Shown here in pieces: positions 15,201-18,200 of a stretch of DNA of 64,000 bases. The notes below the pieces were generated by a model. It made no database searches and was not told the origin of the DNA. It saw nothing but the letters and a program-made list of their open reading frames with translations. Position 1 is the first letter of the stretch. Each line of letters opens with the position of its first letter. The position numbers and the translations under genes are program-made. The DNA lies in contig CM119264.1 in NCBI GenBank assembly GCA_051294375.1, positions 6,420,174 through 6,484,173 on the forward strand. The letters run 5' to 3'. The DNA comes from Paraspadella gotoi. Taxonomy: Eukaryota; Animalia; Chaetognatha.

Positions 15201-18200
15201 AGAGAGAGAGAGAATCAAGAAACTGGTTTTCGGTGTCTTTTGATTTTTTTTCATTGCATTCTCGAAGTTTCTGAAATTCGAAATATTGCCACACTTTTAA
15301 CTTCCTCTTTTTATATTTTTTAGCTTTAAAAAATACAAATAAAACTGTTTCAAAACTTTTTAAAGTATTTTATATTCAGAGTTGATTTAATTCATTTTAG
15401 ATAATATAACTTAATTGATCGATAATTTGGCTAAAAGTAAAATATAAAAATCGTTCTCTGGGAATGTCAAAACCAGCCGGTTATTTTTAAAAATTTCAAC
15501 TCATCTTGAAATGTCTAAAACCCGTTACAACCGTCAAATTTTCAATTTGTAATGCTGATTGTGCATTTTTTCCATTTTTAATTACTTTCTAGAAGTTTTG
15601 AGAATTCGACAAAATTGAATTTTGAGGCTCATATCTTCACTTCGCCTCCGAAAGCTTTTTCAAGCTCTCAGCTCAACTTATCAGATTTCGACTTTATTTT
15701 TAATTATTCAATTCAAGATTACTTTGGATGAAAATATAAAATACAAAATTAAAAAAATAAAAAACAAACAAAAATGTCAGAAAAAAGTGAAATCCTTTTT
15801 GAAGAATTCGCCGCGGCCTTGGAGCCGACGGAGCGGTGGATCGAAGACGCGGAAGGTGTGCTGAAGCTCATCCTCGGTCAGCTTCGCGGGACGTCGCGGT
15901 TTCGCGTGTCGCGCTGCGAACTCGTCGGCGGACTCTCCAAGCGCACCTCGACTCGATTGAAGGCCGACGTCGATGCCGTCGTTTACTACGAGGACGACGA
16001 TCAAGATCTCTCGCGTCACGAAGTCGTCATGGAAATGCTGGACATCCTCAGGTCGTCCACCGATTTGGAAGTTCCCGACTTTAGATCGACTTCCTTTCTA
16101 CTTCATTTTACTTACGACGGAATCCCCTTGGATCTCGTCCCCGTTCGAGACAACAAAGAAAGCGGGTATCAGCCGTTGGAACAGCACAGATTCCCCAGGT
16201 CCACCTCCATGATGCAACAGTGGACCAACGATGTCGGGGAGGTCACAGCTTCGTCCGATCCGATGGAAGCTTCCAAGGATCTAACTCTCTCTTGGCCGAG
16301 CAGAGAATGGATGAAAAAGCAGCCGTCTGTCGTCCCAAAATTGGCGAGATTGGCCAAATTCTGGTCGCAGACAGTTCTCTTCGATCAGGTTGTCAACGGG
16401 AAAGCCTACATCTTCGAACTGCTCGCCGTCAAATCTTATTGGGACATGGAGAGCACGATCGAGTTTTCCTTCGTCAGATGTTTTCGTCAATTTCTCTTTC
16501 GCGTCAAAGGGCTAGACCATTTAAGAGTCGCCTTCGGAGATAAAGAGAAATGTTTATACAAAGAAACTGACATTTTGAGAGAAATCCGATATCAGCGTCC
16601 CTTGCTGATGGACCCCGTCAATCCGTTCAGCAATTTACTTGACATCAAAAATGAAAACGTCAAGAAGAATTTCTTTGAAAAATTCAGTGTCGCAGCGAAC
16701 TTGACTCTCCAACGACTCACGAGACTCGGCGGGGCACGTGATTATGTTCCGATCTCGATTCTGAGCGACATATTCGAGCCTCCCTTTAAATTAAACAACT
16801 CTTCCTTGAATCTCGAGAACATTTTCGTGAGACCCATCCCGTGGCGAACAAAATACCCGCGGATGCGAATCGAGAAGTTGAAAGGCTCGCGTTTCGATCG
16901 ACAAAAGAAAAAACTGATGTTGGAATCGCTGATGCTTAACGTAAGCTCTGTCGTGTTCACAAACGTCTGGAAAAATCTGCAGGAAGTTAACGACGACAAC
17001 GACGATGGACCATCTAGTTGGCTAGAAAGAATCCGCAGCGGCAGCAGCAGCGGCAGCAGCGGCGACAGCCACAACGACGCCTCGGACGCCATCTTGGAAA
17101 AGGCCGTCGAATCTGCGGCGGATTTTCTCGGTGGGACGGCGTCGGAGGGGGTGTCGTCTTTATCTAAGAGCAAAGGGTCATTCTTGATTCCCGTGGGAAG
17201 AAATCGAAGCATCAGAATTGACTTCAATCACGCGTCTCAACGCCCGAAGCGACTGACGGGACATTCGTCTCGATATTCTCGCGCTAATAAAAGAAGGAGG
17301 CGTCACTGACGCCGTCAGTGAAGGAGAAGTTGCTTGGAGGAGGAATGATTTGTCATGACGGATAATTTGAAGTGATCCGCAAAAAAGATTTCGCCGAGTT
17401 TATTATTTTTTTGACAAAAAAAGAAGAAAATGGCTTCTAATGACAAAAGAATGTGANNNNNNNNNNNNNNNNNNNNNNNNNNNNNNNNNNNNNNNNNNNN
17501 NNNNNNNNNNNNNNNNNNNNNNNNNNNNNNNNNNNNNNNNNNNNNNNNNNNNNNNNNNNNNNNNNNNNNNNNNNNNNNNNNNNNNNNNNNNNNNNNNNNN
17601 NNNNNNNNNNNNNNNNNNNNNNNNNNNNNNNNNNNNNNNNNNNNNNNNNNNNNNNNNNNNNNNNNNNNNNNNNNNNNNNNNNNNNNNNNNNNNNNNNNNN
17701 NNNNNNNNNNNNNNNNNNNNNNNNNNNNNNNNNNNNNNNNNNNNNNNNNNNNNNNNNNNNNNNNNNNNNNNNNNNNNNNNNNNNNNNNNNNNNNNNNNNN
17801 NNNNNNNNNNNNNNNNNNNNNNNNNNNNNNNNNNNNNNNNNNNNNNNNNNNNNNNNNNNNNNNNNNNNNNNNNNNNNNNNNNNNNNNNNNNNNNNNNNNN
17901 NNNNNNNNNNNNNNNNNNNNNNNNNNNNNNNNNNNNNNNNNNNNNNNNNNNNNNNNNNNNNNNNNNNNNNNNNNNNNNNNNNNNNNNNNNNNNNNNNNNN
18001 NNNNNNNNNNNNNNNNNNNNNNNNNNNNNNNNNNNNNNNNNNNNNNNNNNNNNNNNNNNNNNNNNNNNNNNNNNNNNNNNNNNNNNNNNNNGAGAGAGAG
18101 AGAGAGAGAGAATATATGGATAGATTAAGAGATAGGGAAAGCGAGATAGAACGGTTTGACGGCAGATTCGGCTCTTAGAAAGCGGAAATCTTAATAAATT

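Follow-up and report, generated by a model that had tools for sequence, protein, structure and literature searches.

Analysis of the window, the whole 64-kb stretch of DNA under study, uncovered an intact single-frame gene of a known superfamily, encoding a 511-aa protein (P0001) in which an OAS-superfamily nucleotidyltransferase unit is followed by an extra C-terminal domain (Table 1). The 511-aa reading frame described in an earlier note on this DNA was confirmed, as window positions 15774-17309 (+) translate to 511 aa plus a stop, and the motifs cited there were all recovered in place (G52-G53, D65, D67, D120, K195-F-W197, Y212-I-F-E215-L-L, and R275-P-L-L-M-D280-P-V-N-P-F-S-N287). Frames arising by chance are far shorter than 511 codons, with the longest stop-free runs spanning 119–197 codons in 20 shuffles of the window. 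GC content is 0.51 in the OAS-like ORF vs. 0.25 in the 500 bases upstream, and the family profile detects a single OAS-like sequence within the 64-kb window, the P0001 ORF itself.

Table 1 Features of the P0001 gene, in window coordinates.
Feature	Position	Strand	Basis
ORF encoding the OAS-superfamily nucleotidyltransferase unit and the added C-terminal domain	15774..17309	+	Single frame, 511 aa plus stop; protein P0001
Pol-beta-type nucleotidyltransferase lobe, residues ~1-165	15774..16268	+	Model pLDDT mostly >85; VIA match to OAS1
P-loop G52-G53, K56, T58, and catalytic D65 and D67	15927..15974	+	D65 in 57/58 and D67 in 56/58 aligned rows
Third catalytic aspartate, D120	16131..16133	+	D in 56/58 rows, E in 2; profile-aligned to the third Asp of OAS1
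OAS1_C lobe, residues 176-290 (R177, K195-x-W197, A211-Y212, E215, DPxNP)	16299..16643	+	PF10421; aligned to human OAS1 193-308
Uncatalogued C-terminal domain, residues ~331-486, beta-beta-alpha-alpha-beta-beta; a degenerate copy	16764..17231	+	End-to-end alignment with the family tail profile; predicted secondary structure as in the P0002 tail
In-frame Asp/Ser/Gly-rich insert of ~34 residues inside the tail	16971..17072	+	Confined to P0001 in the alignment; residues 411-430 have low pLDDT
Basic C-terminal extension of 24 residues, with 10 K/R and no D/E	17235..17306	+	Composition

The earlier description of the gene as intronless holds for the coding sequence, which runs in one frame and is collinear with its relatives. 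In a pattern scan of the ORF, donor-like sites at 16827 and 16941 have no polypyrimidine acceptor downstream. Unlike the P0001 coding sequence, its actin-like neighbours are interrupted by GT-AG introns, in one of them with pyrimidine tracts, and because these introns are spliceosomal the window is assigned to a eukaryote. The assembly is noisy here, as actin-like and EamA-like units are repeated at 86–92% identity and contain frameshifts, which makes the intact frame of P0001 notable.

The remainder of the window holds several repeated elements. Approximately four tandem, divergent, intron-containing actin-like copies (86–92% identity, several of them frameshifted) lie at 43626-62325 (−), and represent either a real array or a redundant, noisy assembly. 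Two inverted units of ~4.6 kb (86% identity) occupy 33367-42510; they carry an EamA-like transporter ORF at 40357-41328 (−) whose match (E 9e-06) falls below the cut-off, and a frameshifted look-alike near 34600-35500. A tandem duplication of ~850 bases at 8712-10391 (91% identity) has no Pfam match. A scan of 118 reading-frame fragments between positions 544 and 32676 revealed no receptor-like or effector domain; for receptor or transposon genes, the same 118 frames gave low-complexity matches below the cut-off only, and there was no Rfam match. No HORMA, Trip13, or NucC-type partner was found among the 118 + 12 frames scanned in the window.

Contigs from run X1 gave genomic support for the gene. 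Near-identical contigs contain two variants of the gene, at P0001 codons 67 (D67) and 71 (Y71), both of which are synonymous. A diverged paralog is represented by a contig of 1285 nt, which runs collinear with the gene across 15921-16621 and differs from it in length by −33 and +3 nt, both multiples of three. Contigs on 15921-16621 and 16350-16417 represent one or two such OAS-like paralogs, in frame wherever they align. Run X1 looks like DNA, because upstream non-coding DNA is also covered, and since its coverage of the ORF is partial, gaps in it are uninformative.

Initial homology searches placed P0001 within the OAS superfamily. Pfam OAS1_C (PF10421) was detected over residues 176-290 (E 4.1e-07; 30.2 bits, cut-off 19.9) and is the sole Pfam family reported for the protein at E ≤ 1, a threshold at which neither NTP_transf_2 nor Mab-21 (PF03281) was reported; Mab-21 is also absent among the 11 families matched at E ≤ 0.01 by the rows of the family alignment. 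An exhaustive search recovered 220 relatives at E ≤ 0.001, and among the best 150 of these the closest shares ~40% identity with P0001. The alignment comprises 58 of 60 proteins of 380–560 aa, P0001 included, of which 51/58 match OAS1_C and 17/58 match SMODS. When searched against the PDB, the profile built from these 58 rows matched OAS2 (6.1e-60), OAS1 (6.6e-36), and E. coli CdnC (1.8e-25), followed by OAS3, OASL, and then other CD-NTases. On the housekeeping side, Utp22 (0.0056) and URT1 (0.52) were the matches, and no poly(A) polymerase (PAP) or CCA chain appeared at E ≤ 1.

Structure comparison gave a closer result. The AlphaFold model of P0001 (pLDDT 84.4, pTM 0.86), for which the family alignment served as input, put CdnC (9.5e-10) at the top of the Foldseek matches, in a tie with OAS1 (1.2e-09). 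VIA ranked porcine OAS1 first (Z 24.3, rmsd 3.2, 289 aligned), with CdnC (Z 23.2, rmsd 3.9, 294 aligned), yeast PAP (Z 22.4, rmsd 3.2, 303 aligned), and URT1 (Z 21.1) as runners-up. The split between OAS and the housekeeping enzymes is therefore clear by sequence, where the profile gap is wide, and narrow by structure, where the VIA margin over CdnC and PAP is small. Profile, structure, and tree nevertheless agree on the OAS-superfamily identity proposed in the earlier note, with CdnC next and housekeeping enzymes further off; best matches to a CCA-adding enzyme, PAP, or NF45, the outcome named there as contrary, were looked for and did not occur. The nearest solved structures are OAS enzymes and not cGLR, PAP, CCA, or DZF proteins.

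The catalytic core is well preserved across the family. P0001 has the hG[GS]x11DxD pattern of the nucleotidyltransferase lobe; D65, D67, and D120 are present, as had been claimed, and align with the triad of OAS1, and K195 and W197 are invariant in the 58-row alignment. Conservation reaches at least 90% at G52, K56, D65, D67, D120, R192, E215, and P281/N283/P284/N287, a pattern expected of an active family. Weak PADLOC cyclase matches cover residues 9-133. When compared with the residues contacting donor and pyrophosphate in OAS1 (taken from PMC13129866), P0001 retains G52, K56, T58, K195, Q199, E215, and D280 in addition to the Asp triad. Three polar pyrophosphate contacts of the porcine enzyme are replaced (S62, S73, and Q229 by G53, A64, and A211), a loss that the earlier note had missed, and porcine K219 corresponds to L202. 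Position 211 is Ala in P0001 alone (1/58) and Ser in 47/58 rows. The base-contacting Q193/Q194 of OAS1 corresponds to S176, which leaves ATP preference and linkage insecure. Catalysis is thus likely for the family, and we are somewhat less sure of it for the P0001 copy.

The GG P-loop had been taken as a hint that ligand or product might differ from those of vertebrate OAS. G53 aligns with S63 of human OAS1, and the position is Ser in 38/58 rows and Gly in 17/58, including all 11 rows of the P0001 sub-clade, so GG is inherited as a clade trait and was rejected as a sign of a new product.

Residues of the RNA switch point in two directions. The triad through which dsRNA activates OAS1, K66/R195/E233 (PMC11359028), is retained in full in P0001 as K56, R177, and E215, so activation by RNA is possible for this protein. 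The switch Arg occurs in 1/58 family rows; most relatives lack it (Val in 39/58), so the branch is probably not switched in the way of OAS1, a reading weakly inferred from this substitution. The P0001 core is also acidic (pI 5.6 vs. a median of 7.8 in 43 relatives), unlike a dsRNA-binding surface.

A second feature missing from the earlier note is the C-terminal tail. Relatives extend ~130 residues past OAS1_C, through an FxPQP motif, a conserved Pro and Arg, two helices, a Trp, a His-x3-Asp motif, and two strands. The tail profile gives 15 bits or higher for 57 of the 60 single-unit relatives whose sequence continues for at least 100 residues past the core, a count that is partly circular as many belong to the training set; held-out proteins score 82 (P0049), 30 (P0017), and 29 bits (P0005), with reversed controls reaching at most 6.7. 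The tail of P0002, the nearest relative in the tree, modelled alone with a pLDDT of 89.6. No Pfam family is common to more than one of 17 tails, and Foldseek gave no match at E ≤ 0.001 in the PDB or BFVD. The best VIA score, to dynein-light-chain-like axoneme chains, is at background level (Z 4.3, rmsd 4.6, 75 aligned), the best PDB sequence match has E 1.2, and the best Atlas score is 0.78. Neither HORMA (in the fold searches) nor a ubiquitin-like fold (by Pfam or fold) was found among the matches listed, and PAP and CCA domains are not among the top 50 fold matches of the isolated tail model. The modelled tail thus has no clear solved match in these searches, a result that falls short of proving a new fold; as a conserved accessory domain, it would also represent a new domain family.

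P0001 carries a divergent copy of this domain. Its tail aligns end-to-end with the 58-row profile, weakly (15.6 bits), with 0/2000 shuffles scoring as high; on a 17-row profile, 49/2000 shuffles do. Pairwise comparison is significant against one of seven tails (z 4.5 vs. P0002, and not significant vs. six others), and hhalign probabilities are 21% and 5%. Predicted secondary structures of the P0001 and P0002 tails agree, although the P0001 model, built with the family alignment, is not independent. The conserved family Trp, His, and Asp are missing, and the P0001 tail is degenerate. An intron was considered for the Asp/Ser/Gly-rich insert and provisionally rejected, as a pattern scan of the genomic DNA alone gave no in-frame acceptor or matching splice pair. 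The basic extension at the C-terminus is presumably akin to a nuclear-localisation or nucleic-acid-binding peptide.

Tail carriers are widespread. A low-reach search with the tail alone returned 11 proteins, seven of them new, all with OAS1_C. Named carriers are Orchesella (two-unit proteins included), Apostichopus, Bradysia, Namystynia, and one MMETSP transcript, so tail-bearing relatives come from a springtail, a sea cucumber, a gnat, and protists. Because protists are among them, the family is not confined to invertebrates, and the invertebrate scope given earlier is too narrow. Short-pattern scans of low reach confirmed no prokaryotic or viral members in GTDB genomes or IMG/VR. Several proteins are tandem multi-unit forms (P0032 and P0064 (Orchesella dallaii), and P0012), those of Orchesella repeating core plus tail twice. 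In another protein, P0065 (871 aa), the OAS unit at 383-695 is preceded by a PNMA-family match at 120-220 (E 4.7e-07, above the cut-off); PNMA proteins are Gag-derived.

In order to relate these sequences, an unrooted tree was built from core columns only, with 34 tail-bearing units, 5 tail-less animal-type OAS units, and 9 units from marine transcripts in which ubiquitin-like (UBL) domains are fused to OAS. All rows were found starting from P0001; 14 lie outside the tail-bearing group, and none is vertebrate or bacterial. Tail-bearing rows were thinned to 34, and the final tree leaves out 34 short-tail rows and most no-tail rows; in a first tree the tail label had looked scattered because truncated proteins were mixed in. 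A branch supported at 99/99 (97 under a mixture model) separates all 34 of the tail-bearing units from the tail-less and UBL-OAS units. P0001 is sister to P0002 at 100/99 inside the tail-bearing rows and, in this tree without vertebrate sequences, stands apart from brittle-star and other tail-less OAS units. Its end branch is long (0.73 vs. a median of 0.44). These phylogenetic analyses place P0001 in a widespread, tail-bearing, non-vertebrate OAS branch, and it is this clade and its tail domain that are new, rather than the presence of OAS outside vertebrates.

The UBL-OAS transcripts form a set of their own. Eighty marine transcripts (L001-L080; e.g. L001:54-1775, L002:3-1958, and L013:64-1767) encode one or more N-terminal ubiquitin-like domains fused to an OAS unit, with the domains checked by Pfam on 3/80. 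DxD is replaced by DxE in most of them, and the tail domain is absent from all. A spliced-leader tail begins 33/80 of them; we take this leader to be that of dinoflagellates.

We consider it an even call that P0001 uses ATP to build short, linear signals of the oligoadenylate type, which would be read by a receptor distinct from RNase L; the tail is likely a regulatory module. This reading starts from what is observed, namely the fold, the family, the Asp triad, the homology of the tail, and the clade. By comparison with relatives, nucleotidyl transfer would follow a two-metal mechanism and use chiefly ATP, and the products may be 2′-5′ or mixed-linkage oligomers, as in sponge OAS. The product would then act on a receptor other than RNase L, and the tail could supply the trigger or the localisation. 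By analogy with OAS1, CBASS CdnC, and dsRNA-responsive cnidarian OAS only, we infer that the role may be one in defence.

A first alternative is that P0001 is a paralog with reduced or no catalytic activity, serving as an OASL-like nucleic-acid-binding or scaffold protein, or decaying, while its relatives remain active. We regard this as unlikely. The substitutions G53, A64, and A211 at three polar phosphate contacts are what such a protein might show, as are the long end branch, the degenerate tail with its insert and new basic end, and the presence of at least one paralog in run X1. However, P0001 keeps the Asp triad together with K56, K195, and E215, its 511 codons stay open in an assembly where actin-like copies are frameshifted, and the variant sites in near-identical contigs are both synonymous.

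It is rather improbable that P0001 is instead a CdnC-like cyclase whose product would be a cyclic oligoadenylate or some other cyclic nucleotide, and whose tail would take the place of a HORMA activator. The OAS superfamily is nested in bacterial clade C (PMC10732462), and the characterised animal OAS products described in PMC10732462 and PMC2852836 are linear. CdnC is the first Foldseek row, in a tie with OAS1, and the best non-OAS profile match, and the PADLOC cyclase matches, though weak, point the same way; against this, the profile favours OAS over CdnC by at least ten orders of magnitude. The fold searches of the tail gave no HORMA match.

That P0001 modifies RNA, adding poly(A), oligo(U), or CCA-like tails to a substrate bound by its third domain and basic end, is very unlikely, since the three-domain layout with an RNA-binding third domain seen in PAP and archaeal CCA enzymes, the VIA scores of PAP and URT1, and the basic C-terminal end are offset by the lack of any PAP or CCA chain at E ≤ 1 by profile (URT1 reaching only 0.52), by the conserved OAS-specific KxW, ELL, and DPxNP motifs, and by the fold matches of the isolated tail, whose top 50 include no PAP or CCA domain.

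Returning to a linear oligoadenylate-type synthase as the preferred reading, published work already covers much of the ground around it. The earlier note assigned the gene to an uncharacterised invertebrate signalling pathway; non-vertebrate OAS proteins are a group already described in PMC10400998, PMC10732462, and PMC6307210, and the statement that products of invertebrate OAS-like proteins are largely unknown does not hold for the sponge, whose OAS makes 2-5A and 2′,5′ heteronucleotides (PMC2852836) and is reported to be dsRNA-independent (PMC6307210). OASa is confined to jawed vertebrates and OASb is patchy across unikonts; RNase L is absent outside jawed vertebrates, and two vertebrate OASb proteins tested in yeast did not couple to it (main text of PMC10400998). 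The superfamily spans 8/12 eukaryotic supergroups (PMC10732462), and OAS without RNase L or UBL occurs in springtail, oyster, and others (PMC6307210). In Nematostella, the response to dsRNA involves an OAS1 homolog (PMC8476169, PMC13319465). The supplement of PMC10732462, as covered here with the first 30 of 324 OAS1_C rows, gave no entry for Namystynia, and OAS goes unmentioned in a 2026 preprint on protist immunity. In the literature searched, with subscription papers mostly outside its scope, no description of the tail or of the tail-bearing clade was found.

A wider proposal, which we hold doubtful, is that the tail-bearing OAS clade represents an old, pan-eukaryotic nucleotide-signalling system apart from OAS-RNase L and cGAS-STING. 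The tail would have an unsolved fold and would bind a trigger or product through its conserved Arg, Trp, and His-x3-Asp, joining sensor and synthase (and perhaps receptor) in one protein. If true, the clade would offer a direct handle on OAS function where RNase L is lacking. Because one OAS clade alone carries this conserved accessory domain, the role of OAS outside jawed vertebrates becomes a testable question. P0001 is one divergent member that adds little alone; the clade matters more, and its other members are better subjects for the bench.

Among known systems, vertebrate OAS1, OAS2, and OAS3 (OASa; PDB 4ig8, 4rwn, 9h1z, and 4s3n) share with P0001 the nucleotidyltransferase plus OAS1_C fold (Z 24, ~20% structural identity), the Asp triad, equivalents of K66/R195/E233, and the KxW, YxxELL, and DPxNP motifs. 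Unlike them, P0001 has an extra domain of ~130 aa, a GG P-loop, changed equivalents of Q194 and Q229, and an acidic core, and its pathway would differ in that no RNase L is expected outside jawed vertebrates. Closer in distribution are OASb, the wider OAS superfamily, and springtail, sponge, and cnidarian OAS (PMC10400998, PMC10732462, PMC6307210, PMC2852836), which are OAS1_C-bearing nucleotidyltransferases, patchy in animals and protists and without UBL or RNase L; neither a conserved domain at the C-terminus nor a clade of this kind appears in the passages that describe them, although the supplement of PMC10400998 may show the clade. The E. coli clade C CD-NTase CdnC of CBASS (PDB 6p80 and 6u7b) is the closest bacterial match by fold and profile (Z 23.2; E 1.8e-25), and P0001 differs from it as a eukaryotic gene with an extra tail, no operon, and no HORMA, Trip13, or NucC nearby in the frames scanned. 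Human OASL (OAS-UBL-UBL; PDB 4xq7) has a similar layout, its OAS unit carrying an accessory domain on the C-terminal side; the P0001 tail is not ubiquitin-like by Pfam or listed fold matches, and its Asp triad is intact. The UBL-OAS transcripts mirror the domain order of vertebrate OASL, and the two-unit core-plus-tail proteins of Orchesella parallel the duplication seen in OAS2 and OAS3.
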